In this document: piece by piece, positions 6,169 to 60,768 of the stretch
How positions within the stretch are numbered: the first letter of the stretch is position 1
Layout: every line of letters starts with the position of its first letter
NCBI GenBank assembly: GCA_964490125.1
Contig: CAZBAJ010000005.1
Span: 4,631 to 68,630, forward strand
Source of the DNA: an uncultured Candidatus Saccharibacteria bacterium
GTDB lineage: Bacteria; Patescibacteriota; WWE3; UBA101185; UBA10185
DNA length: 64,000 nucleotides
Direction: 5' to 3'
Notes under the pieces: generated by a model
Database searches by the model: none
The model's input: the letters and a program-made list of their open reading frames with translations, nothing else
Told to the model about the DNA's origin: nothing
Translations under genes and position numbers: made by a program

Positions 6169-6288
6169 GATTTAGAGAGCAGGCGCCACGCCCCTCACAG
6201 TCACAAATGTATCCCGCTAATTTGGGGGATTACAGATGATTGAGAGGGCGTGGCGTTTTGCGTATCTGGCAGTATAATCAAACAAGCA

Positions 6289-9200
6289 ATGTTAAAAATT
6301 ATCTCATTTTTTAAAACCAATATTTCAGGAATTGTTTTAGTTGTCATTTGCCTCTATATTTGTCGCGCTAATTACACACCCGGCACTTTTTTAACCGGCT
6401 GGGATACTTTGCATCCGGAGTTTAACTACCGCATTTATTTAAGCCGTATTTTGGACGGGGTGTGGCAGGAACATCAGAGTTTGGGGGCGGTGGCTACTCA
6501 AGCCCACGCTAGCGAGATTCCGCGCATTTTAGTGTTAATGCTTTTGGATGTATTTTTGCCCATGAATATGGTTAGGTATGCTTACGCATTTTTGATGTTA
6601 ATTTTAGGTCCTTTGGGGCTGTACGCGTTTATTAAGTATGTGTTAAGGGGCAGGGGTTTTTGGACGGGGGAAGTGGCGGGTTTTGCCGGCGGGTTGTTTT
6701 ACTTGTTTAATCTTGGGACTTTACAGCATTTTTATGTACCACTGGAGATGTTTTTAACTCACTTTGGACTTTTGGGGTGGTTGTTTTTGACCGTGGTGTG
6801 GTTTTTGCGGGAGGGGAGTAAAAAAGCGCTTGTTTGGTTTTCTGTAGTTACGCTTTTTATGACTTCTCAAGCCCACACCGCAACTTTGTTTTATGCTTTT
6901 TTCCTGTATTTGGTGTTATATCTTCTGACATATTTTGTCGCACACAAATGTAACGGCCAAATTTTTAAAAGAGCCGTTCTTATAATCACAGGAACCCTTG
7001 TTATCAATCTATTTTGGTTTCTGCCAAATGTTTATTTTGCAGTTACTCACGGAAAAGAAATTCAGGAGTCAAAAATCCATTTGTTGTTTTCACAAGAGGC
7101 TTTTTTGCAGAATAAAGAGTTTGGAAACATTAAGGATACCGCTTTACTTAAAAGCTTTTTGTTTAATTGGGGGGAGTATGTGGGGAATAACAGATACGGG
7201 GATTTATTGGATGAGTGGAAGTATCACTTACAACAGCCTTTAGTAATTCCTTTGGGTTATGCTTTTTTTGGTATGGCGGTTCTGGGATTGATTATGGCTG
7301 TTGTTAGGCGGGAGAGGGAACTTGTAGGGATTGGACTAATGTTTTTAGTAGGGTTGTTCTTTATTTTTAATGTTAATCCGCCACTTGGGGGTGTTTTTGT
7401 CTGGTTGCAGGATAATATCCCGCTTTTTAAGGAGGCGTTTAGGTTTCCGTTCACTAAATTTTCCATAGGTTTATTGTTCTGCTATGCAGTATTTTTTTCC
7501 TACTTTGTGTCTGTTGTGGTCAAAGTCTTGGGAGGATGGTCTGCCCATCCGACGAATGGGCTTCCCGCCGTAGGCGGGATCGGGACCCGTTTGGCGGGGG
7601 GCAGACCTCCGACCAGAATACTCGCGTGGTTAGGGTTCGTCGTCCTACTTTTTCTGTCCTTCTACTACTATGCCAAACCCATGTTTACCGGCGGATTAAT
7701 AAGCCCAAGTATGCGCGTTGCCATTCCCCAAAGATACTTTGACATGTTTAGCTATTTTGATACCCAAAAGGAGTACGGGCGGGTACTTAATTTGCCAATC
7801 CATTCCATGTGGGGTTGGGTGTATCACAATTGGGATCCGCAAACTACTCTAGGCTATCAAGGCGCGGGTTTTTTGTGGTTTGGTATAAAACAGCCGTTAA
7901 TTAATAGGGAGTTTGACAGGTGGAATCTTACAAATGAAAAACCTTACATGGAAATTTCCACGGCAATTTATTCCGAGGATGTGGCTACGCTGGAAAAGCT
8001 TTTGGATAAGTACAAAATCCGTTGGTTTTTGGTGGACCAAAGTATTGTAGCGCCAGAGCAGGATGTCAAACAGCTTTTTTATCCCCAAATAGAGTCGCTT
8101 CTTAAGTCGTCCCCAAAAATTAAACTGGAGAAAGACTTTGGGGACGGTTTAGCAGTTTACAAATACTTTCCAGACAAGGACTTTGCCCAAAAGGAGTGGC
8201 TCGATACCTATTATATAGCGGGCGACAGCACTTTTAAGGAGCCAAACGACCCTATTTATAACACCTACGGGAATTACGCGGGAAATGACGAAAAGTCTTA
8301 TCCGTTTGTGGGTATTACCAATTACGACGAAAGCGTAAAGCAGGGTTACATTACCAGCGACGCCAAAAACCTATATTTTAATAATGCTTTGGCTTTTTCT
8401 AATTTGTCTGCCAATATTGCCGGCAATCTGTTTCAATACTTGGTTTTTCTGGACAAGGCGGGGGAGAACTACTTATTAAAATTTGAGCCCGTGGAGAAAT
8501 CGCTTGAACTTGGTTTTTCTTATGATTTAGGCAAACTTGATCCAAACATAGTTGGGGTTGCAATAAATAACTCGACGGTTTTGTCTGTTGTCAAACCGCA
8601 GGTGAGGCAAGTAGTGCTTTTGGATCCAAGTCAGCAAGTAAAAATAAGTCAGCTCTCCCAGTCGTCCAACTTACTTACCGACACAGATTTTTTTAGTGCG
8701 CTGGAAAATTGCAGTTTGGTGGGGGAACAAACCTCGTACTCTTTGGAGCGCGTGGAAAACGGCTTTGTGTTGTTGGCGCAAAATGTGGACGCGTGCGTTA
8801 CCGTAAATTTGCAAAACTATTTGGCCGACGATGCCGAGGGCAAGACGAATGGAGCTACAAGCTTAATCCCGGGCGATTCCTGGAGTGCGGGCAGTATCTA
8901 CCAAGTTACAGTAGGTTTAGGTGAAGGTGCGGTTCTAAACAAGCAGGAAGTTTGCGTTTTTGACGATGTTTCTGGACTTTGCGTTAACCCCCCGCTTGCA
9001 GACGGCAAAACATTTTTTACCCCTCTACCAGGCAGAAATTATAGCTTGCGACTCTTCGCTCGTGGTAAAAAGTCACTTGCTAGAGAGGTTAGGGTAGAGT
9101 ATTCCAATCTAGGACTTTATACGCTAAAGAATGAAAAAGAGTCGGCTTTTAAGCCCAACTTAGTCCTGCAAAAAGACTTGGTCTTAAGCAAGTGGCAATT

Positions 9201-10020
9201 TGAAAAAGACCTTAATTATTCCGGCAATGCGTCCACACTTACCAACTACCCCAGGCTTTGTAATACCGGCGCAACCGCGTTTAATAAGTCCAAAATTTCT
9301 GTTATGGGCAGTTTTGGCACGCCCTTTATTAGGTACGAGTCCCACGGGGAGGCTTTGTGCGACTCTTTTGAATTTCCCATGTTTGACCACGCTAGTGGGG
9401 CGGTGTTGGAGGTTCGTTCAAGAAATTTGGCGGGTATGCCGTTAAGACTTTGTTTAACTAATGAGTATTCAAAGCGGTGCGACTTATATGTGTCGCTCAC
9501 CAAAAATGTTGATTTTACCACGCAGTACTTTTTAGTTCCGCCTATGGGCAATGGTAGGGGCTACACGGTAAATTTTAGCAATTTAATTTTTGGGACTTCT
9601 GTAAGCATTAACGACTTGGAATATGTGGCTTTGGTGCCGTTTCCTTACTACTTGGTACGGGGTATTCACAAGCCACTTACTACTGTAGCTGGGCGACTTT
9701 TGGTTTACAACCAAGCCTTTGAAAACGGCTGGATCGCGTGGTGCGGGTTTAAGCCCTGTCGCGCGGAGCATGTTGTGGTGAATAATTGGGCAAATGGTTG
9801 GGTTTTTCCCTCGGTTCAGGGAGACTCGTCGGTTTCGTCCAGCTCGTCGTCCCAACAAGTCGGTCAACCACCTCAAAATCTATCACCGTCGTCCCCAAAT
9901 GTAATTATTTTCTTTTGGCCACAAGTTTTAGAGTATCTTGGTTTTGGCTTTTTAATCGGCTGGTTTGCTTTAGTCGTCCTGCTCCCAAAACTCCAAAATT
10001 ATAAAAAAAGCTTTGACTGA
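6289..10020 (+). CDS. very large polytopic membrane protein with extracytoplasmic domains (GT-C / YfhO- or AftD-like)
   Basis: About 1240 aa from the ATG at 6289. The track ORF begins at a GTG at 6250 that lies inside an upstream hairpin. About 13 N-terminal TM helices, an internal TM pair, a large central/C-terminal soluble region and a C-terminal anchor helix. Carries an in-frame GC-rich palindromic insertion at about 7537-7610. Confidence 0.5.
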   Translation: MLKIISFFKTNISGIVLVVICLYICRANYTPGTFLTGWDTLHPEFNYRIYLSRILDGVWQEHQSLGAVATQAHASEIPRILVLMLLDVFLPMNMVRYAYAFLMLILGPLGLYAFIKYVLRGRGFWTGEVAGFAGGLFYLFNLGTLQHFYVPLEMFLTHFGLLGWLFLTVVWFLREGSKKALVWFSVVTLFMTSQAHTATLFYAFFLYLVLYLLTYFVAHKCNGQIFKRAVLIITGTLVINLFWFLPNVYFAVTHGKEIQESKIHLLFSQEAFLQNKEFGNIKDTALLKSFLFNWGEYVGNNRYGDLLDEWKYHLQQPLVIPLGYAFFGMAVLGLIMAVVRRERELVGIGLMFLVGLFFIFNVNPPLGGVFVWLQDNIPLFKEAFRFPFTKFSIGLLFCYAVFFSYFVSVVVKVLGGWSAHPTNGLPAVGGIGTRLAGGRPPTRILAWLGFVVLLFLSFYYYAKPMFTGGLISPSMRVAIPQRYFDMFSYFDTQKEYGRVLNLPIHSMWGWVYHNWDPQTTLGYQGAGFLWFGIKQPLINREFDRWNLTNEKPYMEISTAIYSEDVATLEKLLDKYKIRWFLVDQSIVAPEQDVKQLFYPQIESLLKSSPKIKLEKDFGDGLAVYKYFPDKDFAQKEWLDTYYIAGDSTFKEPNDPIYNTYGNYAGNDEKSYPFVGITNYDESVKQGYITSDAKNLYFNNALAFSNLSANIAGNLFQYLVFLDKAGENYLLKFEPVEKSLELGFSYDLGKLDPNIVGVAINNSTVLSVVKPQVRQVVLLDPSQQVKISQLSQSSNLLTDTDFFSALENCSLVGEQTSYSLERVENGFVLLAQNVDACVTVNLQNYLADDAEGKTNGATSLIPGDSWSAGSIYQVTVGLGEGAVLNKQEVCVFDDVSGLCVNPPLADGKTFFTPLPGRNYSLRLFARGKKSLAREVRVEYSNLGLYTLKNEKESAFKPNLVLQKDLVLSKWQFEKDLNYSGNASTLTNYPRLCNTGATAFNKSKISVMGSFGTPFIRYESHGEALCDSFEFPMFDHASGAVLEVRSRNLAGMPLRLCLTNEYSKRCDLYVSLTKNVDFTTQYFLVPPMGNGRGYTVNFSNLIFGTSVSINDLEYVALVPFPYYLVRGIHKPLTTVAGRLLVYNQAFENGWIAWCGFKPCRAEHVVVNNWANGWVFPSVQGDSSVSSSSSSQQVGQPPQNLSPSSPNVIIFFWPQVLEYLGFGFLIGWFALVVLLPKLQNYKKSFD

Positions 10021-21334: not shown

Positions 21335-22051
21335 ATGACAAATGAAGAAATTACTCTCCACGCCTTAGAGTTTGCCAAAAAGAATAAACTCCGCATAGCC
21401 AGAGAATTGACCGATCCAAGTAAATATAAGCCTACAGACCATCCCGTCTCTGTTTTTATGGCAGGTTCTCCTGGGGCGGGTAAGACGGAATTTTCTAAAA
21501 ATCTTGCTAAAGATTTACATAAAGGTGAAGGCATCAATGTTGTTCGGATTGACGGGGATGATTTAAGACCATATATGCCGGGTTATACAGGAAGTAACTC
21601 TCACCTATTCCAGGGTGCCGTTTCTTTAATTGTTGAGAAGATGCAAGATTTAGTATTACATACAGGGCAAAACTTTATTCTGGATGGAACTTTCTCTAGT
21701 TATCGTAAAGCTACCGAAAACATCAATCGCTCCTTGTCTAAGGGCAGGGTTGTTTCAGTTTTTTACTTGTATCAAAGACCTGAAATAGCTTGGAAGTTTA
21801 CCCAGGCGCGTGAAAAAGCAGAAGGTAGAAACATTCCCAAAACAGCCTTTATTAGTCAATTTTCTGAGGCTAGAGAAACAATTGAGAACCTAATTTTGAA
21901 TTATGGTGGTCTTATTAAGATAACTCTTGTGGCTAAAGACTTTGAGAATAAAACAATCGATCTTGTTGAAATTGCGGACAATGCGACAAAAATTGACGGT
22001 GTTACTTTTGCTCGTTATAATGAGCGAGAATTAGAAAGTTTATTAAAATGA
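21335..22051 (+). CDS. zeta-toxin-like P-loop kinase family protein
   Basis: Walker A (FMAGSPGAGKTEF) with the zeta/AAA_33-like layout. ATGA overlap with the next small ORF. Confidence 0.55.
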   Translation: MTNEEITLHALEFAKKNKLRIARELTDPSKYKPTDHPVSVFMAGSPGAGKTEFSKNLAKDLHKGEGINVVRIDGDDLRPYMPGYTGSNSHLFQGAVSLIVEKMQDLVLHTGQNFILDGTFSSYRKATENINRSLSKGRVVSVFYLYQRPEIAWKFTQAREKAEGRNIPKTAFISQFSEARETIENLILNYGGLIKITLVAKDFENKTIDLVEIADNATKIDGVTFARYNERELESLLK

Positions 22052-27759: not shown

Positions 27760-28449
27760 TTAATTGGAGATCCACCAGCTAACTTCAGCGTCGGTGGCGG
27801 TTGGGGCATCTAGTTCCAAGTAAAAACCTTCAAAAGGAATTTTTTGGGAGATCCAATATCTGGTAGCCGGTGAAAAGTCAGAGCTAAAAGTTGCGTTAAT
27901 TTTTGAGTCCAGTTTTACTTGGGAGCTTTTTATATACACCTTCTTTTGGTTTTTTAAAATGTAAGTAGTCCCACTGTCCAAAATAAACTTTTTGTCTAAT
28001 TCCAAAGTTCTTTTAATTAGGTCATTTTTGGACTTGCCTATGGGCAAAAAGCCAAAACCCGCAAGAATTACCAGACCAAAAAGAGCCAAAAGCGCAAATT
28101 TAACAGTTTTGGTCGACGGTGTTAAGATCCTTGCCACCTTTATTGTTGAGGCATAGGTTTTTTGATTTTGACTATTTTGATTTATGGTAGAAAGTGACTT
28201 TAGTTTTTGACCGATTTCCTCATTAGAAAGTCCCAAAGCTTTTAATTTTTCTATTTCCAACAGGGTATCCAGCGCGTGTTTTGGATAGTGACCTATAACC
28301 TCGCCATTTATAGTTCTTCTGACCATGTGGGGGAGCAGTCCCAATTTGGTGTAGTAGCGCAACCTATTATAAGGGTCGCCCTTGCCAAACTTAACACCGT
28401 TTTTTACGGCAAGCTCTATTAAAGTGTCCAGCGCTAGTAAGTCGTCCAT
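27760..28449 (-). CDS. hypothetical membrane-anchored protein with N-terminal HTH-like domain
   Basis: The N-terminal 80 aa are helical with a putative HTH (YNRLRYYTKLGLLP). Single TM (ALLALFGLVILAGFGFL). C-terminal extracytoplasmic domain. Confidence 0.4.
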   Translation of the reverse strand: MDDLLALDTLIELAVKNGVKFGKGDPYNRLRYYTKLGLLPHMVRRTINGEVIGHYPKHALDTLLEIEKLKALGLSNEEIGQKLKSLSTINQNSQNQKTYASTIKVARILTPSTKTVKFALLALFGLVILAGFGFLPIGKSKNDLIKRTLELDKKFILDSGTTYILKNQKKVYIKSSQVKLDSKINATFSSDFSPATRYWISQKIPFEGFYLELDAPTATDAEVSWWISN

Positions 28450-51891: not shown

Positions 51892-52776
51892 ATGCAACAA
51901 GATACTTTTAGCGAAAAACTTTACACATCGACAGAAGTTGCGGAAATACTTGGCGTCAGTCTTAGATCTATATACAGGTATCTTGATGATAACAAGATTC
52001 AAGCTGCTGTAAAAACTGCCACAGGGCGACATAGATTCACAAGACAGAATATTAATGATTTCTTGCACCCCAGTGAATCAAGAGCAGTTAAAGAAACACC
52101 TCATGAGAAAATACAATCGGCCGAAGTTCCAAGTTCCGCACTAGAAGAAGTTGAACAAGATGAGTTTGAAGAGGGTCAAAAAGAGGTTGAAGTTATATCT
52201 AAAAGTGTTAAAGAGCCACAAAGTGAGAAAGTGGCTATCCAAGACGAGCCGGTAGATTGGCTAGCTCGATTCAGGCAGGCGGCGGAAAAATACAAAACCC
52301 AAGATAGTGAAGAAAGTATAGAAAAAGTTACAAAAAAGACATTTAAAGCACAAGAAGCCCCAGAGATACAGGAAAAGGAAGAGGCGGAGCAGGAAGATGA
52401 GTCCACATACTACTATTACAGGAGTGGAGTAGGCGGTTTAAAGGAGATAGCCCAAGCTATAGACAAGTCAGCTAAAAACGCCTCACTAGACTACGCTTTT
52501 ACCATGAGCGCGGGGTTGTCGCTTCACAAGCCTATCAAACCCTTTTCCCTGATTCATTCTTATGTCAGACCTGCGGATTTGGCGTATTTTGAAAAAGTCC
52601 TCCAACTTACTCCGTGTCAAAAAGATACTGCACAGTTATGTTTAATAACCTCAAGCGATGAGAAGTTGTATGCCCAAAGAAAAGAGTTGCACGGTTTGTA
52701 TGTAGTGTCGGACAACCAAATAAAGACGGATTTGCTTAATGACGGCGAGACCGAGCTTGCCAACGAGCTAGAATAA
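51892..52776 (+). CDS. HTH (MerR/excisionase-type) DNA-binding domain protein with acidic middle region
   Basis: N-terminal YTSTEVAEILGVSLRSIYRYLDDNKI HTH_17-like motif. Glu-rich low-complexity centre. Confidence 0.45.
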   Translation: MQQDTFSEKLYTSTEVAEILGVSLRSIYRYLDDNKIQAAVKTATGRHRFTRQNINDFLHPSESRAVKETPHEKIQSAEVPSSALEEVEQDEFEEGQKEVEVISKSVKEPQSEKVAIQDEPVDWLARFRQAAEKYKTQDSEESIEKVTKKTFKAQEAPEIQEKEEAEQEDESTYYYYRSGVGGLKEIAQAIDKSAKNASLDYAFTMSAGLSLHKPIKPFSLIHSYVRPADLAYFEKVLQLTPCQKDTAQLCLITSSDEKLYAQRKELHGLYVVSDNQIKTDLLNDGETELANELE

Positions 52777-52792
52777 AGTGTAGAATTCACTC

Positions 52793-54361
52793 GTGGATTC
52801 CAATAAAACCCCCAAAATAATTCAGGCGTTGGAAAAGGTTATTTTAGACCCTTCGGTAAATCAGCTTACCGGCAAGACCGCGCACCCGTTAAAAATTATG
52901 CTGGTTGCCGTAGAGGTTTCTCCCTATGCGCGGGTAGGTGGGGTTTCCATGGTAATTGGTGCTTTAGCAAATTCTCTTAAAGCCTTGGGACACGATGTTA
53001 GAATCTTTATGCCCAAATTTGGCTTTATTGACGAGCAATTGTATAAAACCCAAGTTATTATGCAGGGTTTAAAAGTCCCCACCGGTGATCAAAACACGCC
53101 TTTTTTGGAATGCAATGTCAAACGACATATAAGAAACGGCATTCCCACTTATTTTTTGGAAAACATGGAATATTACGAGTTGCGCGCCAATGTATACGGT
53201 TATACTGACGATGCTATAAGGTGGGCTTTGTTAAATAGAGGCGCATTGGAGTTCATTTTAAAGTCCGACTTTGTACCCGATGTCATTCATTGTAATGACT
53301 GGCAATGTGGTTTATTGCCAAATTATCTTAAGAGCGTGTACAAAAATGAGATTGCGTTGGCAAATATGGCAACGGTTTACACCATTCATAATTTAAAGTT
53401 TCAGGGTATGTTTGACCATAAGAATGTTTCGGAAATTGACTTTGACGACGGATGGTCGGACATAGCACCTTTTTTTGATGTGCGTTTGACTAAGCAGAAC
53501 TTTATGCGTCGGGGGCTTATCCATGCCGATATGATAAGTACTGTTTCTAAAAGTTACGCTAAGGAAATATCTACCCCGGAATACGGCGAAGGTTTAGATA
53601 AATTAATTTGCGAGCTTAGGGAAAAGATTTTTGGCATAGTTAACGGGATAGATTACACAGAAATGGACCCTGCTAAAGATTCCCTTTTAGAGAAGAACTA
53701 CGACATAAAGTCCATAGATTTAAGGTCGTACAACAAAGAGGCTTTGCAAAAGGAGTTTGATTTGGAGGTAAATAAAGATATTCCCATGCTGGGATTTGTT
53801 GGCAGGTTAGATGCCCAAAAAGGTGTAGATTTGATGGTTTCCGTATTGGAAAAGTTTTTAGGTAGGTATAACGCGCAATTTGTCCAAGTGGGTGGGGGAG
53901 ACGGCTGGCTAATGGAACTGCTGCAGAATTTAAAGCTTAAGTATCCTGCAAAAGTTGGCGTCTACCCGTTTCCAAATTTTACTTTGCCTAGGTTAGTTTT
54001 TGGTGGGAGCGACATAATTTTGTTTCCTTCCAGATTTGAGCCGTGCGGTGTGGTTCAACTTGAGGCAATGCGTTACGGTGCCATTCCATTGGTTAGGAAT
54101 GTGGGCGGATTAAAGGATACCGTAAAACAGTTTGACACATTAACACAAAAGGGTACGGGCTTTGTGTTTGACGACTTTGATGAGTTTGCTTTATACGGTG
54201 AGATTGTACGGGCTTTAGAGGTGTATAAAAATCCCATGTTGTGGAGGAAAATGCAAATTAACGCCATGCGGGAAGACTACAGTTGGACATACAGTGCTAA
54301 GGAGTATGAAAAGCTGTATTTAAGGGCGCAAAATGTTGTCAGTAAGAAAGTCGCTATATAA
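52793..54361 (+). CDS. glgA: glycogen/starch synthase (GT5)
   Basis: N-terminal KIMLVAVEVSPYARVGGVSMVIGALANSL (the K-x-GG motif region). C-terminal GT-B domain with the E...FEPCGVVQLEAMRYG motif. Confidence 0.85.
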   Translation: MDSNKTPKIIQALEKVILDPSVNQLTGKTAHPLKIMLVAVEVSPYARVGGVSMVIGALANSLKALGHDVRIFMPKFGFIDEQLYKTQVIMQGLKVPTGDQNTPFLECNVKRHIRNGIPTYFLENMEYYELRANVYGYTDDAIRWALLNRGALEFILKSDFVPDVIHCNDWQCGLLPNYLKSVYKNEIALANMATVYTIHNLKFQGMFDHKNVSEIDFDDGWSDIAPFFDVRLTKQNFMRRGLIHADMISTVSKSYAKEISTPEYGEGLDKLICELREKIFGIVNGIDYTEMDPAKDSLLEKNYDIKSIDLRSYNKEALQKEFDLEVNKDIPMLGFVGRLDAQKGVDLMVSVLEKFLGRYNAQFVQVGGGDGWLMELLQNLKLKYPAKVGVYPFPNFTLPRLVFGGSDIILFPSRFEPCGVVQLEAMRYGAIPLVRNVGGLKDTVKQFDTLTQKGTGFVFDDFDEFALYGEIVRALEVYKNPMLWRKMQINAMREDYSWTYSAKEYEKLYLRAQNVVSKKVAI

Positions 54362-54367
54362 CAACTT

Positions 54368-54396
54368 TTGACAATATAAGCAGAATATTGTATACT
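54368..54396 (+). promoter_or_regulatory. promoter TTGACA-N17-TATACT upstream of the GH57 genes
   Basis: TTGACA at 54368-54373 and TATACT at 54391-54396. Followed by a leader of about 130 nt with an 11-bp GC-rich stem (gtccggggtgg/ccacttcggac, 54418-54478). Confidence 0.45.
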
Positions 54397-54532
54397 ACCT
54401 AGTACATTGCACAGTCTTGTCCGGGGTGGTGGTATTCTCATTTTGTGGGCAGGAAAGTGAGGAGAGCCACTTCGGACTAGGTTGTGCAATTTTTTTGCTT
54501 GCGGTTTTAAAAGTTGCAGATATAATAGTTCC

Positions 54533-55852
54533 GTGAACATTTGTTTTTTACTCCACTTTTATCAGCCTTCAAACCAGTCGGAGAGTGTAATAAAAAAAAT
54601 TGCTCACGAGTGCTATCTTCCTCTAGTCAAACTACTAAAAAACGATAAAAGAATTAGGTTGACGGCAAATTTTCCATTGGCTCTACTTGCGCAACTAGAT
54701 GCTTACGGTTTTAGCGACTTAATTAAGGACATTAAAGATTTGGTTGATGCTCAAAGGTTAGAACTTGTTGGTAGTGGTGCGTATCACCCGTTGCTTACAA
54801 AAATCCCATTAAAGTTTGGGGAAAAACAGATTATGTTAAATGAACTTGCCCAGGGTTACTATTTTGGCGCGGACAAAGATTTTGAGGGCGAGGACTGCTA
54901 TATGATTAAAGATCTCAAGGGTTTTTTTCCACCGGAGATGGCAATAAATATTTCCGTTTTGGAGATGCTGGATTCGTTGGGCTACTTTTGGGTGGCTGTA
55001 GACGAAACTTGTCTGCCAAAGGATGTAATAAGCAGTCATATATGCGGGACAATGTATAAATTTAGCAATCTATCTATCAAATTGATAATACGCGATAGAG
55101 ACTTATCTAACCAAATTGCTTTTAAGCGTGATTTGGATATTGCGTCAATTACTGACAAAGTTTTGCAGGGAGATAGCGATAAATTACTGGCTTTTGATGC
55201 CGAAGCTCTTGGTCACCACTACCCGGATGGTATAGACATGTTTGAGGCTATTTTGTCGGGCATTTTTAAAAAGGGAATCCAGACTTCTACGGTATCACAA
55301 GCTTTTGACGGGACAAGTTGCAAAAACATCCCGCATATTCAGGAGTCAACATGGAGTTCTACCCAAAGTAGCATATACCCTTTATGGGAAAATAGAGAGA
55401 ACAAAGTAAATTCCGCATTGTGGGACTTGTTTAACAATGTTCACTTGGAGCTGGGGGGACAGGAGGGTGGATCAGGTGGTGACACGGCAGACAATATCGG
55501 ACAGTTTAACCATTTTGGCACCACTGGAAATCCGGGCGGTCTTGATTTTGATTTGATGGCAGGACCTGTTTGGAAAAAATCTTCTGCAGATTTAACTGGA
55601 AAAGATACCAGCGACAAGGATATTACATTGTTGGACATGTTAAGGCTTGAGCAAAGCGATCAGTTTTGGTGGTCTTCCGGAGTCGAACTTAACGGTAAAA
55701 CTAATTTTAGTACTACAATGGTAACTTCCGTTTTGGACTACTATCGTAAAGTTATTGATGGTTTTAAATTATCGCATAGTTTGCTAGACCGTGTTAGAGA
55801 GCTTGAAGAGTTACTACGGAATTATAAGGACAATAGTCATGCAGTGGTGTAA
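54533..55852 (+). CDS. glycoside hydrolase family 57 protein (alpha-glucan branching/amylase-like), copy 1
   Basis: N-terminal FLLHFYQPSNQ, a GH57 HQP-type motif. Start tentatively at GTG 54533. Overlaps the downstream paralog by 14 nt. Confidence 0.6.
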   Translation: MNICFLLHFYQPSNQSESVIKKIAHECYLPLVKLLKNDKRIRLTANFPLALLAQLDAYGFSDLIKDIKDLVDAQRLELVGSGAYHPLLTKIPLKFGEKQIMLNELAQGYYFGADKDFEGEDCYMIKDLKGFFPPEMAINISVLEMLDSLGYFWVAVDETCLPKDVISSHICGTMYKFSNLSIKLIIRDRDLSNQIAFKRDLDIASITDKVLQGDSDKLLAFDAEALGHHYPDGIDMFEAILSGIFKKGIQTSTVSQAFDGTSCKNIPHIQESTWSSTQSSIYPLWENRENKVNSALWDLFNNVHLELGGQEGGSGGDTADNIGQFNHFGTTGNPGGLDFDLMAGPVWKKSSADLTGKDTSDKDITLLDMLRLEQSDQFWWSSGVELNGKTNFSTTMVTSVLDYYRKVIDGFKLSHSLLDRVRELEELLRNYKDNSHAVV

Positions 55853-57332
55853 TTTTTTACATTTCTATCAGCCAGCTAATCAGCAAAGGGATATACTAGA
55901 AGCTGTAGTAAATCAATGCTATCGACCTTTGTTTACAGGTCTGCTGAAGAAAGATAGGGCAAAACTAACCGTTAATATTTCCGGTGCTCTCTTCGAACTG
56001 TTGGACAAATATAACTTTAAGGATGTTGTCGACGCTATTGTCAGCCTGCACGCTAGAGGGAATTTGGAGTTGACCTCTACGGCCTGTTATCATGCATTCC
56101 TACCTTTACTACCAAGAGAGGAAGTTGTAAGACAGATAGAACTCAATAATAAAGTATTAAAACGCTATTTAGGGAATGATTTTATGCCAAAAGGCTTTTT
56201 TCCACCCGAGATGGGTTGTAACTCAGCTTTAATGAATATTATAGATGACATGGGGTTTGAATACATTGTATTGGATGAAATAGCACACCCAAATTATGGG
56301 AAGGGAAATAGTTTAGGAAATAATCATTTTACATTTTCTAATACTAAATTACATATTTTATATCGACAAAGAGTACCTAGTAATATACTTATGAGTGGTA
56401 TAGAGCGCAACAGCAAATCTATTGGCGCGATATTGAACAATTATAGTAATCAAGAGTACTTAATAACTGCCATGGACGGAGAAACCTTTGGACACCATAG
56501 ACCAGGATTAGAGGTTCCGTTTTTAGAGTTATTCGATGACATAAATATACAATACGCTAAAATAGAAGATTTGTTGTTACAAAAATACACAAAGGCTCCC
56601 ACTTCTGTTGTAGATTCTACATGGGCAAGTAGTTTGGATGATATATCCAAGAGGATTCAATTTATCTCGTGGAAGGATCCTGATAATGTATTACATACTT
56701 GGCAGTGGGAATTGGTTGAAGTTTTGTTAAATGTTGTCAATAGTTTAGGTAAGGAAGAACCTAATTATGAAAAAATTCGGTCTGATAAAGATAAGGCTCT
56801 AGCGTCTGATCAATTTTTTTGGGCGTGCGCAAATCCTTGGTGGAGTGTGGAGATGATTGAGGGTGGGGCGTACGCATGTCTTACCGTTATTGAGAAAATT
56901 CCAAACATCTCTCCGTCAATATTAGAACACGCCAGAACTCTTTACAGAAACATCATTTCCACGGCTTTTGAATGGCAACGAAAAGGAAAAATTAGGGAAA
57001 TCAGTGCAAGTAGAAATATAGCCCAGAGAATTCCTTTTAAAGCCAGAACATTGGAGGTAGGTGGGGCAGAGGTTGCAGTTTATCAGGCTTTTATCGACAT
57101 GATGAAGGCACAGGAAGTCCAAGCAGCAAAAGCAGGCGAATACGAAAAAGCCATTTTATGGCGTGATGCAGTATACAAAATAGAGACAAAAAACGACATT
57201 TACGATGCAATTAACGCCATAGATCTATTGAGAATAGAAATTTCTAACGAACGCGTGGAGGACATGATATCCAAGTATAAGGAGGATTACTACAAAATTA
57301 GAGGCGGTCAGCCTGAACAGAGGAGTAACTAA
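55839..57332 (+). CDS. glycoside hydrolase family 57 protein, copy 2
   Basis: ATG at 55839 (MQWCNFLHFYQPANQ). Paralog of the upstream gene with a C-terminal helical domain. Confidence 0.65.
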   Translation: MQWCNFLHFYQPANQQRDILEAVVNQCYRPLFTGLLKKDRAKLTVNISGALFELLDKYNFKDVVDAIVSLHARGNLELTSTACYHAFLPLLPREEVVRQIELNNKVLKRYLGNDFMPKGFFPPEMGCNSALMNIIDDMGFEYIVLDEIAHPNYGKGNSLGNNHFTFSNTKLHILYRQRVPSNILMSGIERNSKSIGAILNNYSNQEYLITAMDGETFGHHRPGLEVPFLELFDDINIQYAKIEDLLLQKYTKAPTSVVDSTWASSLDDISKRIQFISWKDPDNVLHTWQWELVEVLLNVVNSLGKEEPNYEKIRSDKDKALASDQFFWACANPWWSVEMIEGGAYACLTVIEKIPNISPSILEHARTLYRNIISTAFEWQRKGKIREISASRNIAQRIPFKARTLEVGGAEVAVYQAFIDMMKAQEVQAAKAGEYEKAILWRDAVYKIETKNDIYDAINAIDLLRIEISNERVEDMISKYKEDYYKIRGGQPEQRSN

Positions 57333-57334
57333 TT

Positions 57335-58792
57335 ATGCTAAAAGTTTTATTGTGTGGGTCTGAGGTGGCACCTGTAATCAAGCTGGGCGGTTTGGGTGAT
57401 GTGTTAGGTTCCTTACCCAAGTCGTTGGAAAACATAGGCGTTGACGCCGATGTTGTGGCGCCGTTTTTTCCTTCTGCCAAAATTGAAGGACTTAAGCTTT
57501 ATAAGAGCAGGGATTTATTAGTTCCGTTTACTGGAGTAAATCAGCGGGTTGAGGTTTGGGCGACAAAATTACCTGCTTCCAATGTTGACCTCTACATGTT
57601 AAAGAATGACGATTTTTTTGGCGGTGTTGGAAAAAGCGCTTTCCTAGGAAATTTGTCGGAAACGCAGGCGTTTTCCTTTTTTAGCAGGTGTGTGGTTGAG
57701 TTGGTAAAAAGTAGATTTAATACTTACGATGTAGTCCACTGTAATGATTGGCACACGGGTCTTGTAACTCACCTATTGCAGGACGAATTAGGCATCTCCC
57801 GACCCGCTACTATTATGACAATTCATAATATATCTTACCAAGGGTTGGGCGATACATTTGTGGCGCATGAGGCTGGTCTTGATCCGGCGGTTCATAAAAC
57901 CATTAGTTGGGATATTTCCGACGGCGATTTAAATTTACTTATGCAGGGTATTATGACGACCGATTTTATCACTACTGTGTCTCCATCGTATGTGACGGAA
58001 TTACTAGCTATGGACGATGGCAGTCAGATACAAGATGTGCTAATAAGTAGACAAGACAGATTTATTGGGATATTAAACGGCTTAGATTACGCATCTTTTC
58101 CAAGAAGTATAAGCAAGGGAAATTGGCAATCGCAAAAACAGAGTGACAAAAACGAGTTATTAACAGAACTGGCTTTTGTGAAGAGCGATGACGAAAAGTA
58201 TGATAAAGAGTACAAAGAAGGACCAGTTTTTTCCATGGTTTCAAGATTAGACCCCAATCAAAAGGGTTTGGATATTCTTTTCGAGATCATTCCATACATA
58301 GTAGAAAACGGTGGAAGGTTCGTGTTACTGGGTTCTGGGGATAAAGCTTGGGAGGAAAAATTTAAACAACTGCAGACCGAATTAGGTCCACAAAAAGTGT
58401 CTATTAACACAACTTTTGACGCAGATTTAGCCATAAAAATTTACAAAGGGAGTGACTTTTTTCTTATCCCGTCAAAATTTGAACCTTGCGGACTTACTCA
58501 AATGATTGCCATGTGGTACGGAGCTGTTCCTGTAGCCCACGCCACGGGAGGTTTAAAAGACACTATAAAACACGGCAAGACTGGATTTCTGTTCACCGAC
58601 TACTCTGCGGAAGCCTTTAAAGCCTGTCTAACAAAATGTTTTAATATTTACAAAAGTCCGGCGCATTTTGCTATAGTAGAAGAGTGCTTAAGTCAGGATT
58701 TTAGTTTTGACAAAAGCGCGCAGTCTTACAAAGAACTTTACGAAAAAGCTGTGCAAATTAGAAAGGATGCGTATGGGCCTGTTTATCTTTGA
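57335..58792 (+). CDS. glycogen-synthase-like GT-B glycosyltransferase (second copy)
   Basis: MLKVLLCGSEVAPVIKLGGLGDVLGSLPKSL N-terminus. C-terminal FEPCGLTQMIAMWYG motif. Confidence 0.75.
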   Translation: MLKVLLCGSEVAPVIKLGGLGDVLGSLPKSLENIGVDADVVAPFFPSAKIEGLKLYKSRDLLVPFTGVNQRVEVWATKLPASNVDLYMLKNDDFFGGVGKSAFLGNLSETQAFSFFSRCVVELVKSRFNTYDVVHCNDWHTGLVTHLLQDELGISRPATIMTIHNISYQGLGDTFVAHEAGLDPAVHKTISWDISDGDLNLLMQGIMTTDFITTVSPSYVTELLAMDDGSQIQDVLISRQDRFIGILNGLDYASFPRSISKGNWQSQKQSDKNELLTELAFVKSDDEKYDKEYKEGPVFSMVSRLDPNQKGLDILFEIIPYIVENGGRFVLLGSGDKAWEEKFKQLQTELGPQKVSINTTFDADLAIKIYKGSDFFLIPSKFEPCGLTQMIAMWYGAVPVAHATGGLKDTIKHGKTGFLFTDYSAEAFKACLTKCFNIYKSPAHFAIVEECLSQDFSFDKSAQSYKELYEKAVQIRKDAYGPVYL

Positions 58793-59738
58793 CCCTCTAA
58801 CCGGTGAACCAACAATATTGGCGACCAATAGAGCAAAGCGACACGATCAGACGGGCGTTGTGAATGCTAACGCTGTAGGTATGGTAAAAGCCGACGATGG
58901 AAAAGTTGACAACCTACTTAAAGAAGAACAAGCGCCACCTTGTTTCTTTTGCAAAGGTAGCGAGTCTATTACACCGCCAACCTTGTATCAGGATGAGGAT
59001 GATTGGAATGTTAGGGTTTTTGCCAATAAATTTCCCTTGGTACCGGATCACGAGATTATTGTCCATTCGCCGGATCATCACAAAGACATGGAGGATTTTA
59101 ATCACGACCAAAATGTCAGAATAATTAGGGCCTATTTAAACAGAGTGTCGTATTATGGCACACAGGACAAAGAGGTTATCATCTTCAATAACAAAGGTGG
59201 GCGGGCGGGAGCTTCCATCGTCCACCCGCACTCTCAAATTATTGCCACTAAGGGTTTTCCGGGCATTATAGAAAAGGAAAAAGCAGAAGCTCTGCATTAT
59301 AGTAATGAGAAAAACTCCTGTTATTGGTGTGACGAGTGGCAGGAGGCGGTAGCGGGAAAAACTCGTGTTGTTCATGAGTCGTCACACTTTGTTGTATTTT
59401 GTCCTAAAGCTAGCAGGTGGAGCTACGAAATGGTTTTGGTGCCAAAAAACCACAAACCTAACTTTGGATTTATCGACGAGATGGAAATTAACGATTTAGC
59501 AAAAGTATTGCCGGGAGCTTTACTGGCCTACAAAAACTGCTTTAACAACCCGGACCGCAATTTTTGGATTCACACGGTTAGATACGAGCCTTATCATTGG
59601 CATATTGGCTTTTTGCCGCATATAAAGGTTTTTGGGGCATTGGAGATGGGCGCTGGAATTTGGGTAAGTGATAAAGCAACGCCGGAGGACGCAGGTCATG
59701 AACTAAAGGCGCATTTTCCGATAAACTTGTTTGCATAG
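58773..59738 (+). CDS. GalT-family (galactose-1-phosphate uridylyltransferase / ADP-glucose phosphorylase-like) HIT-superfamily protein
   Basis: ATG at 58773 overlapping the glgA2 stop by 20 nt. Cys/His zinc motif (FCKGSE...HSPDHH). Active-site HPHSQ. Confidence 0.6.
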   Translation: MGLFIFDPLTGEPTILATNRAKRHDQTGVVNANAVGMVKADDGKVDNLLKEEQAPPCFFCKGSESITPPTLYQDEDDWNVRVFANKFPLVPDHEIIVHSPDHHKDMEDFNHDQNVRIIRAYLNRVSYYGTQDKEVIIFNNKGGRAGASIVHPHSQIIATKGFPGIIEKEKAEALHYSNEKNSCYWCDEWQEAVAGKTRVVHESSHFVVFCPKASRWSYEMVLVPKNHKPNFGFIDEMEINDLAKVLPGALLAYKNCFNNPDRNFWIHTVRYEPYHWHIGFLPHIKVFGALEMGAGIWVSDKATPEDAGHELKAHFPINLFA

Positions 59739-59898
59739 GTCTACCTAGCCGTTTTTTTATCTAAAATAAAGGAAAAAGCGATGCCAAGGTTTTTTAGCTT
59801 GACAAGTCGCACTATTTTTGTAACAATGCACAAGTTGCCAAAGATAGCAAGTGTCCAGCACTTAATTTTCCTACAGGGAACAGCTTGCCGAGGTTACT

Positions 59899-60384
59899 AT
59901 GCCGAATACAATTAAAATACAAAAAGTTAAAGACATCTCCCAAAAAGTCCAAAAAGCTTCTTCTTTGACCTTTTTTGAGTATACAAAACTAGGTGCTAAC
60001 GCGCTAAACGACTTAAGAAACAAAGCTAAAGAGGTGGAGGCGGAAGTTTTAGTGGCAAAAAATACTTTGGTAAAAATTGCGCTGGGCGACAAAAAGTCGC
60101 AGGAGGGCGACCTTCAAGGTCAAACTGGATTGTTACTGGCTTTTGCCGACAGTTTAAGTCCCCTAAAAGTCCTATACGATTTTTCTAAAAAATTTGAGAG
60201 TCTAAAAATTAAGGGTGCTTTTGTGGACGGAAGTTACTACGAATCGACAAAAGTACTTGAATTAGGTCAATTGCCCACAAAGAACGACTTACTAGTTAGG
60301 GTTTTACGGGGATTTAATAACCCTGTAGCCAAATTTGTTTATGTATTGTCTGCTGTAGCTGACAAAAAGGGGGTGCAAGAGTAA
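59899..60384 (+). CDS. rplJ: 50S ribosomal protein L10
   Basis: MPNTIKIQKVKDISQKVQKASSLTFFEYTKLGANALNDLR matches the typical L10 N-terminus. TTGACA at 59799-59804 upstream. Confidence 0.9.
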   Translation: MPNTIKIQKVKDISQKVQKASSLTFFEYTKLGANALNDLRNKAKEVEAEVLVAKNTLVKIALGDKKSQEGDLQGQTGLLLAFADSLSPLKVLYDFSKKFESLKIKGAFVDGSYYESTKVLELGQLPTKNDLLVRVLRGFNNPVAKFVYVLSAVADKKGVQE

Positions 60385-60768
60385 ATGGAATTATCTGCAA
60401 ATGCACAAAAAGTCATGGAAATGGTTGAAAAAATGACTGTTCTGGAGTTAAACGACCTGGTCAAGGCTTTGGAAGAAAAATTTGGAGTTTCTGCTAGCGC
60501 CCCGGTTAGTGTTGGCGGTGCTGGTGCCGGAGCGTCTGCTCCAGCCGAGGAAAAAACCGAATTTGATGTAGTTCTTGCCGAAGCCGGAGGTAATAAAATA
60601 GCCGTTATTAAGGCGGTAAGGGAATTAAATCAAGCTTTAGGTTTGGTGGAGGCTAAAACATTGGTAGAAAGCGCACCAAAAGTGTTGCTTGAGGGCGCTA
60701 AAAAAGAAGCCGCGGAAGAAGCTAAAAAGAAACTAGAAGTTGCCGGGGCTAAGGTGGAGTTAAAGTAA
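60385..60768 (+). CDS. rplL: 50S ribosomal protein L7/L12
   Basis: N-terminal dimerisation helix. Ala/Gly hinge. C-terminal domain [43 protein letters not shown]. Confidence 0.9.

Follow-up and report, generated by a model that had tools for sequence, protein, structure and literature searches.

A glycogen operon has already been listed, in one sentence, for the WWE3 RAAC2 genome, with its branching enzyme assumed to come from the GH57 family (Kantor et al., 2013, mBio, PMC3812714), so that the protein cluster itself is not new; that account makes no mention of an HTH gene, of an RNA, or of the ADP-glucose phosphorylase affinity of the “GalT” encoded there. Searches of the literature on bacterial ADP-glucose phosphorylase, GH57 enzymes with GalT, ADP-glucose in the Candidate Phyla Radiation (CPR), glgC in Patescibacteria and WWE3 RNA motifs returned nothing else pertinent. 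The cluster considered here lies in a 64,000-nucleotide (nt) stretch of contig CAZBAJ010000005.1 (assembly GCA_964490125.1, positions 4,631 to 68,630), hereafter the window, from an uncultured, tiny-genome WWE3/Katanobacteria (Patescibacteria) bacterium; its homologues likewise bear WWE3 or Patescibacteria names. All on the + strand, it consists of an HTH_17 gene, a glycogen synthase gene (glgA1), a 171-nt spacer, two GH57 genes (GH57A and GH57B), a second synthase gene (glgA2) and a gene for a GalT-like HIT enzyme. Within the spacer is a hairpin RNA of about 90 nt that is real, strongly selected and specific to the cluster and, judged by Rfam 15 and the literature that could be searched, previously undescribed. 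The explanation favored here, with a probability of roughly one half, is that the locus as a whole is a lineage-typical WWE3 alpha-glucan (glycogen-like) storage cluster in which this undescribed RNA is embedded as a regulator.

The spacer (54362–54532) contains a near-consensus promoter that is the sole 11/12 match in 9.7 kb, and the hairpin starts 10 nt after its -10 box (8–12 nt in this clade, that is, among the extended WWE3 clusters related to the one in the window). The helix, spanning 54406–54490, has a predicted folding energy of -46.7 kcal/mol (z = -6.3), which none of 200 shuffled sequences matches, and it is followed by a U7 run (T7 in the DNA, 54490–54496). A U-run, counted as at least five T in the next 8 nt, is present in 11 of 13 homologues, so that the element has the stable GC-containing hairpin and U-run that define an intrinsic terminator. 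At its apex is an invariant 9-nt loop, GUGGGCAGG (54445–54453; context U/GUGGGCAGG(A)). A preliminary description of this DNA, made from the letters and open reading frames (ORFs) alone, had recognized an 11-bp stem here (gtccggggtgg/ccacttcggac) enclosing a purine-rich loop: the stem is real but forms just the central part of the longer hairpin, and the supposed loop is mostly paired in the apical helix, leaving the 9-nt loop as the true one.

The promoter, as TTGACA-17-TAnAAT, is kept in every homologue, but its spacer and the flanking sequence diverge. In the divergent RNA promoters (loci L020, L025, L095, L106 and L165), the spacer begins with a conserved TTGACAaRCCTATAA, possibly an operator or an extension of the promoter. 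Selection on the RNA itself is evident at both short and long range: the closest relative has an RNA of 98% identity alongside a GH57B protein of 79% identity, and both RNA changes keep pairing via G.U, while in distant WWE3 genomes the stem sequences are wholly different yet paired, and the apical motif AUUYUGUGGGCAGGARA is unchanged. In a covariance-model alignment of 13 distinct sequences, 98.1% of cells were paired and compensatory double changes were seen in 17 of the 29 pairs, values reached by none of 500 shuffles; as a control, sliding the partner strand lowered pairing to about 50%, and RNAalifold on an independent MAFFT alignment found 12 compensatory pairs. This strong covariation upholds the conserved structured RNA that the preliminary description had proposed for the spacer; lack of conservation, named there as the outcome that would speak against it, is not what was found. 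The covariance model scores the window hairpin at 93.9 bits on the + strand and 26.7 on the - strand, and all loci at 66–102 bits on the gene strand vs. 22–42 on the opposite strand; this strand difference, together with the tolerance of G.U pairs, indicates that the RNA is read from the + strand.

The distribution of the RNA follows that of the cluster. Over about 1 Mb, the covariance model finds the RNA exactly once in each extended cluster and nowhere else. A 17-mer scan of metagenomes yielded 120 loci, six of which carry both promoter and hairpin, in all six cases between glgA1 and GH57A; the remaining loci were set aside as chance matches, without hairpin or cluster context. In Rfam 15, the window at gathering thresholds gave five tRNAs only, the spacer at E ≤ 10 matched nothing beyond generic noise of the miRNA-precursor hairpin type, and four homologous loci at E ≤ 5 gave no match. 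Signal recognition particle RNA, 6S RNA and the known riboswitches were dropped as candidates because none was matched in Rfam, and the scan of the leader that the preliminary description had suggested assigns it to no Rfam 15 family.

Weak covariance-model matches led to a sister clade (loci L029–L036) in which the order is HTH / glgA1 / GH57B, and in which GH57A and the GalT-like gene are both absent. Just upstream of glgA1 these loci have a hairpin (loop ...AAGUGA(N1-3)GGGCAGGACACUU...) set between an A-tract and a U-tract. It ends a non-coding region of about 300 nt with its own TTGACA-17-TATACT promoter (e.g., L036, 7975–8372), the 5' part of which holds a co-varying long-range helix of about 115 nt. 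This longer leader has no relevant match in Rfam, and nhmmer searches with it did not detect the loci of the window's clade. A terminator hairpin bearing the GGGCAGGA loop is nevertheless present in the sister clade too, and a loop-displayed U-GGGCAGG-A on a terminator-like hairpin is the sole element common to the 90-nt and the ~300-nt forms. Each form directly precedes the transcription unit to which GH57B belongs, an argument for a function tied to these genes rather than for an unrelated housekeeping role. With its additional co-varying 5' domain, the longer form could accommodate an aptamer and an expression platform. One sister locus (L036, 11680–13434) also encodes a 584-aa kinase-like protein of the APH family (PF01636), between GH57B and an inverted glgA2; the APH family includes maltokinases.

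The relation of the RNA to the mRNA downstream can be judged from the start of GH57A, which lacks a Shine-Dalgarno sequence and has a TATAAT box exactly 6 nt before its GTG. Most GH57A homologues have a TAnAAT box 6–7 nt before the start (two allow 3 or 9 nt), and in both clades glgA1 likewise has a -10 box close before its start, in the window a TAGAAT 6 nt upstream of the GTG. Many operon-first genes of the window without Shine-Dalgarno sequences have a TAnnnT box 6–10 nt before the start (e.g., those at 27760 on the - strand, 37891, 39814, 43081, 52793, 54533, and 62133 on the - strand), and internal genes (glgA2, the GalT-like gene, rplL) have Shine-Dalgarno-like motifs; leaderless mRNAs appear to be common in this WWE3 genome. 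A -10 box of its own and the absence of a Shine-Dalgarno sequence form a leaderless signature for GH57A, so that the RNA is probably not a classical riboswitch in a 5' untranslated region. The transcript, moreover, begins at the base of the hairpin with nothing outside it, which leaves no room in this clade for an aptamer and an alternative fold; an aptamer competing with a terminator or ribosome-binding-site helix on the regulated mRNA, as in riboswitches, is not seen there. The arrangement that most likely applies, as far as can be read from these signals, is that the GH57A operon has its own promoter and that the hairpin RNA is a separate short transcript terminating just upstream of it.

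On this basis, the strong conserved promoter between glgA1 and GH57A would make a transcript of about 90 nt, consisting of one long hairpin and a U-run, and ending just upstream of the separate promoter for the leaderless GH57A mRNA. The product would be a short, self-terminating, cluster-specific regulatory RNA, the invariant loop of which would be read by a protein or a second RNA acting in trans, and insulation or modulation of the promoter downstream is a possible additional role. Recognition of the loop by such a trans factor is probably how the RNA acts. CsrA is the classical regulator of glycogen metabolism, and the hairpins bound by CsrA/RsmE (the glgC leader, the CAGGAxG repeats of CsrB/RsmZ) likewise display a GGA motif (here CAGGA) in an apical loop near glycogen genes. 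The present RNA differs from them in its longer invariant motif (UGGGCAGG) and in having only a single conserved GGA site. A tblastn search of about 2 Mb of DNA with the E. coli and B. subtilis CsrA proteins, which is a weak test, detected no gene for it. The resemblance is best treated as a lead rather than as a claim of membership.

Two other roles for the hairpin have to be weighed. The preliminary description suggested a riboswitch or attenuator controlling the GH57 pair, which in its full form would make the hairpin part of the 5' leader of a GH57A-GH57B-glgA2-GalT mRNA, with a ligand or protein setting the balance of termination and read-through. A terminator shape directly upstream of the operon would suit this, as would its constant position immediately upstream of the GH57B-containing operon in two clades with different gene orders, the ~115-nt co-varying domain (a possible aptamer) that precedes the sister-clade terminator, and the weak U-runs of two homologues. 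In the window's clade, however, there is no sequence between transcript start and hairpin for an aptamer or anti-terminator, no Rfam riboswitch is matched, and a read-through transcript could not imitate the combination of missing Shine-Dalgarno sequence and closely placed -10 box that is found in nearly all GH57A homologues: if the hairpin is the whole transcript and GH57A has its own -10 box, the classical form of the proposal is unlikely, and the attenuator or riboswitch reading as a whole is rated improbable. Less probable again, to the point of being distinctly doubtful, is that the hairpin is merely a strong intrinsic terminator or insulator, its conserved loop then reflecting a site in the DNA ahead of the GH57A promoter, bound for instance by the HTH_17 protein. 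The likeness to intrinsic terminators is plain enough, in the long GC-containing hairpin and in the U-run shared by most of the sequences, and in the sister clade it extends to a preceding A-tract, A-tract and U-tract there flanking the stem as in bidirectional terminators; the loop (GGGCAGGA) lies some 50–70 bp upstream of the downstream -10 box, and a cluster-specific DNA-binding protein is encoded next door. What sets the element apart from terminators is its own consensus promoter upstream, its invariant loop, and its strict tie to one gene cluster: a dedicated, conserved promoter between the glgA1 stop and the hairpin would be pointless for a mere glgA1 terminator, ordinary terminators do not hold a 9-nt loop invariant while their stems turn over completely, and a DNA site would not need to be always at the apex of a G.U-tolerant RNA helix. 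A separate regulatory RNA with a recognized loop is thus preferred over both.

A further alternative concerns the supply of ADP-glucose, and hence the last gene of the cluster. Both synthases exceed the TIGR02095 cut-off of 328.45 (scores in Table 1) and each matches PF08323 and PF00534; the N-terminal K-x-G-G-L nucleotide-sugar motif reads KLGGL in glgA2, with RVGGV instead in glgA1. As GT5 family members, they would lengthen alpha-1,4 chains from ADP-glucose. The GalT-like enzyme, translationally coupled to glgA2, would handle the sugar nucleotide, most likely by the reaction glucose-1-phosphate + ADP <-> ADP-glucose + phosphate, feeding the synthases without GlgC: the GT5 synthases being of the ADP-glucose type, this is the most economical reading, and ADP-glucose interconversion is a reasonable hypothesis. 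The equilibrium of the plant ADP-glucose phosphorylase reportedly favors ADP-glucose formation. The protein might instead be a true Leloir UDP-glucose:galactose-1-phosphate uridylyltransferase, or some other nucleotidyl phosphorylase, that feeds in hexose-1-phosphates while a GlgC encoded elsewhere supplies ADP-glucose. It matches both GalT Pfam domains as well as DUF4931_N, public annotations name it GalT, its HPHxQ motif is common to GalT, and an archaeal GalT of similar size (6K5Z) also matches. Scores against the class I galactose-1-phosphate uridylyltransferase models nevertheless fall below their cut-offs (89.2 vs. 102.1 for TIGR00209; 95.9 vs. 448 for PRK11720), with the match confined to residues ~116–282, and the best match in the Protein Data Bank (PDB) is the Arabidopsis ADP-glucose phosphorylase At5g18200 (1Z84; 97 bits, 1.4e-26), clearly better than E. 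coli GalT (68 bits) and aligned across both half-domains, including the second CxxC. The sequence features of the ADP-glucose phosphorylase type are all present: H-x-H-x-Q (VHPHSQ), two Zn-type CxxC motifs (CFFC and CYWC), and closest similarity to At5g18200. With that enzyme, itself of the GalT branch of the HIT superfamily (PDB 1Z84/2H39), it shares the H-x-H-x-Q nucleophile and both CxxC motifs over aligned residues 95–310, although identity is only about 30% over the aligned part; VHPHSQ and CYWC are invariant in the GalT-like family, while the first CxxC is lost in some members, unlike in At5g18200. Nor is there a galK or galE in the cluster or in the 64-kb window, and the gene follows glgA2 directly, abutting or overlapping it, in every WWE3 locus that reaches that far, a tight linkage. 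The uridylyltransferase alternative is accordingly rated unlikely, and the ADP-glucose phosphorylase affinity that the preliminary description had raised for this protein is borne out.

Several points count against the favored explanation, a storage cluster with GlgC-independent ADP-glucose supply and its own regulatory RNA. Where the RNA starts and ends, and that it is a transcript in its own right, is read from sequence, and two of the 13 homologues (L060 and L165) have no good U-run, so that read-through into GH57A is possible there. A search of the window for the loop complement CCTGCCCAC, allowing at most one mismatch, gave 16 matches vs. 9.4 expected, none of them near a start codon or on the cluster mRNA strand. 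As the sister clade does without both GH57A and the GalT-like gene, the core pathway can dispense with each of them. Specificity of the GalT-like enzyme for ADP or UDP is not readable from alignments, and a GlgC may be present elsewhere in the genome. A bolder form of the explanation would make the GGGCAGG-loop RNA, in its 90-nt and ~300-nt forms, a new class of CPR regulatory RNA dedicated to glycogen, acting by capture of a protein on the loop or by regulated termination that gates the leaderless promoter, and would combine it with GlgC- and ATP-free formation of ADP-glucose from ADP and glucose-1-phosphate by a HIT-family phosphorylase; this is offered tentatively, as a possibility with the odds against it.

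Both GH57 proteins belong to their family by PF03065, the (beta/alpha)7 fold, and the catalytic Glu and Asp. The nucleophile Glu (GFFPPEM) and the acid/base Asp ((A/M)D(A/G)E(T/A)(F/L)GHH; ALDAETFGHH in GH57A) are kept in every homologue examined (43 for GH57B, 12 for GH57A), and because these residues are retained both are probably active enzymes. An AlphaFold model of GH57B was built on the 43-sequence alignment (with a single sequence, pLDDT was 37). GH57A is found only in the extended WWE3 cluster; GH57B has at least 2609 homologues, nearly all of them about 497 aa long, with an invariant GGQPEQR motif at the C-terminus. No NCBIfam model matches either protein.

The preliminary description placed the pathway in the “GH57-branching” type, and this is not supported. 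The branching subfamily is recognized by three features, namely a nucleophile-to-acid/base spacing of about 170 residues (an inserted domain), a C-terminal domain of the DUF1957 type, and greatest similarity to branching enzymes that have been characterized; the cluster proteins fall outside it. Their Glu-Asp spacing is about 90 residues, which we take to be the non-branching GH57 architecture; the solved protein closest to GH57B in sequence is the T. litoralis 4-alpha-glucanotransferase; and the family profile aligns only piecewise to branching enzymes (AmyC, TK1436, TT1467), skipping about 75 of their residues. Those enzymes (T. kodakarensis TK1436, 3N8T; T. thermophilus, 1UFA/3P0B; T. maritima AmyC, 2B5D) have between nucleophile and acid/base an insertion of their own, of about 75 residues, that is absent here. 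Identity to the GH57 glycogen branching enzymes is 16–18%, amylopullulanases score equally well, and the C-terminal ~100 residues of GH57B, including GGQPEQR, have no counterpart in the matches. GH57A and GH57B thus form a distinct GH57 subfamily, and since it lacks the insertion typical of GH57 branching enzymes, a branching role is unproven and the label “branching enzyme” not established. From family membership, both enzymes would remodel, branch or trim the glucan.

The HTH_17 gene, like the RNA promoter and the TATAAT box before GH57A, had gone unnoticed in the preliminary description. It ends 16 nt upstream of glgA1 and is directly upstream of glgA1 in all WWE3 relatives. In the encoded protein, a long acidic linker is joined by a conserved domain of about 120 aa at the C-terminus, for which no Pfam or PDB match was found; of its 522 homologues, those with named sources are all from CPR bacteria, nearly all WWE3.

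The coordinates of the cluster are collected in Table 1. Gene order, strand and positions agree with the preliminary description, and its main components are borne out by family scans and the ORF map: two GT5 enzymes, a tandem overlapping GH57 pair and one GalT-branch HIT enzyme, together making an alpha-glucan cluster. The real start of GH57A (ORF 54482–55852) is the GTG at 54533, and that of GH57B (ORF 55791–57332) the ATG at 55839, for an overlap of 14 nt; alignment with 10 homologues fixes the GalT-like start at 58773 and confirms the 20-nt overlap with glgA2. Identity between paralogues is 29% for GH57A and GH57B and 28% for glgA1 and glgA2, and both duplications are, to judge from the proteins, ancient. 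No glgB, glgC, glgP or pgm was found in the 64-kb window by Pfam annotation of its large ORFs; the earlier statement that classical glgB, glgC and glgP are missing stands for the window only.

Table 1. Features of the alpha-glucan cluster (positions in the 64,000-nt window).
Feature	Position	Strand	Evidence or remark
HTH_17 (MerR/excisionase-type) DNA-binding protein gene	51892..52776	+	Pfam PF12728, 3.6e-10; first gene of the conserved cluster
glgA1, GT5 glycogen/starch synthase	52793..54361	+	TIGR02095, 479.6 bits; PF08323
Near-consensus sigma-70 promoter, TTGACA-17-TATACT	54368..54396	+	11/12 match
Conserved hairpin RNA, ~90 nt	54404..54496	+	Fold, covariance model, covariation
TATAAT box, putative promoter of a leaderless GH57A-GH57B-glgA2-GalT mRNA	54521..54526	+	Inferred from sequence
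GH57A, divergent GH57 enzyme, 439 aa	54533..55852	+	PF03065, 4.8e-18
GH57B, GH57 enzyme, 497 aa, CPR-wide partner of glgA1	55839..57332	+	
glgA2, second GT5 glycogen synthase	57335..58792	+	TIGR02095, 391.7 bits
GalT-branch HIT nucleotidyltransferase/phosphorylase, At5g18200/DUF4931 type	58773..59738	+	PDB match 1Z84

The order sortase / PEGA (- strand) / HTH_17 / glgA1 / spacer / GH57A / GH57B / glgA2 / GalT-like / rplJ / rplL is kept in every WWE3 locus that is long enough, and the same gene order occurs in more than 10 independent WWE3 lineages at protein identities of 50–80%. Beyond WWE3, other CPR lineages retain just the adjacent glgA1-GH57B pair. In Dehalococcoidia (L039–L053) there are tandem GH57-GH57 genes, 31–35% identical to GH57B, with glgA several kb off in some. 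The rplJ-rplL genes (59899–60768) are directly 3' of the GalT-like gene, and rpoB does not follow rplL; in the window and in three other loci (L054, L060, L184), an alpha/beta hydrolase gene, an M50 peptidase gene or both stand between rplJ-rplL and secE-nusG-rplK-rplA. The 160-nt spacer before rplJ (59739–59898) gave no Rfam match to an L10 leader. Elsewhere in the window are a zeta-toxin-family gene (21335–22051) and a 1256-aa ORF (6250–10020) without a Pfam match.

The CPR/Patescibacteria make up a large uncultured share of bacterial diversity with minimal metabolism, and both their carbon storage and their regulation in general are poorly known. For the WWE3 lineage, the protein cluster is better not taken for a textbook “GH57 branching + GalT” pathway, and the new item is the RNA: a co-varying, promoter-equipped hairpin with an invariant loop, confined to the cluster and without an Rfam match. 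To our knowledge, few regulatory RNAs have been described from this phylum, to which the hairpin adds a candidate. Seen alongside the -10 boxes next to start codons, it raises the question of how regulation is exerted upstream of leaderless genes. If ADP-glucose is indeed made without GlgC and without ATP, this would be an energy-saving route suited to symbionts with minimal genomes.

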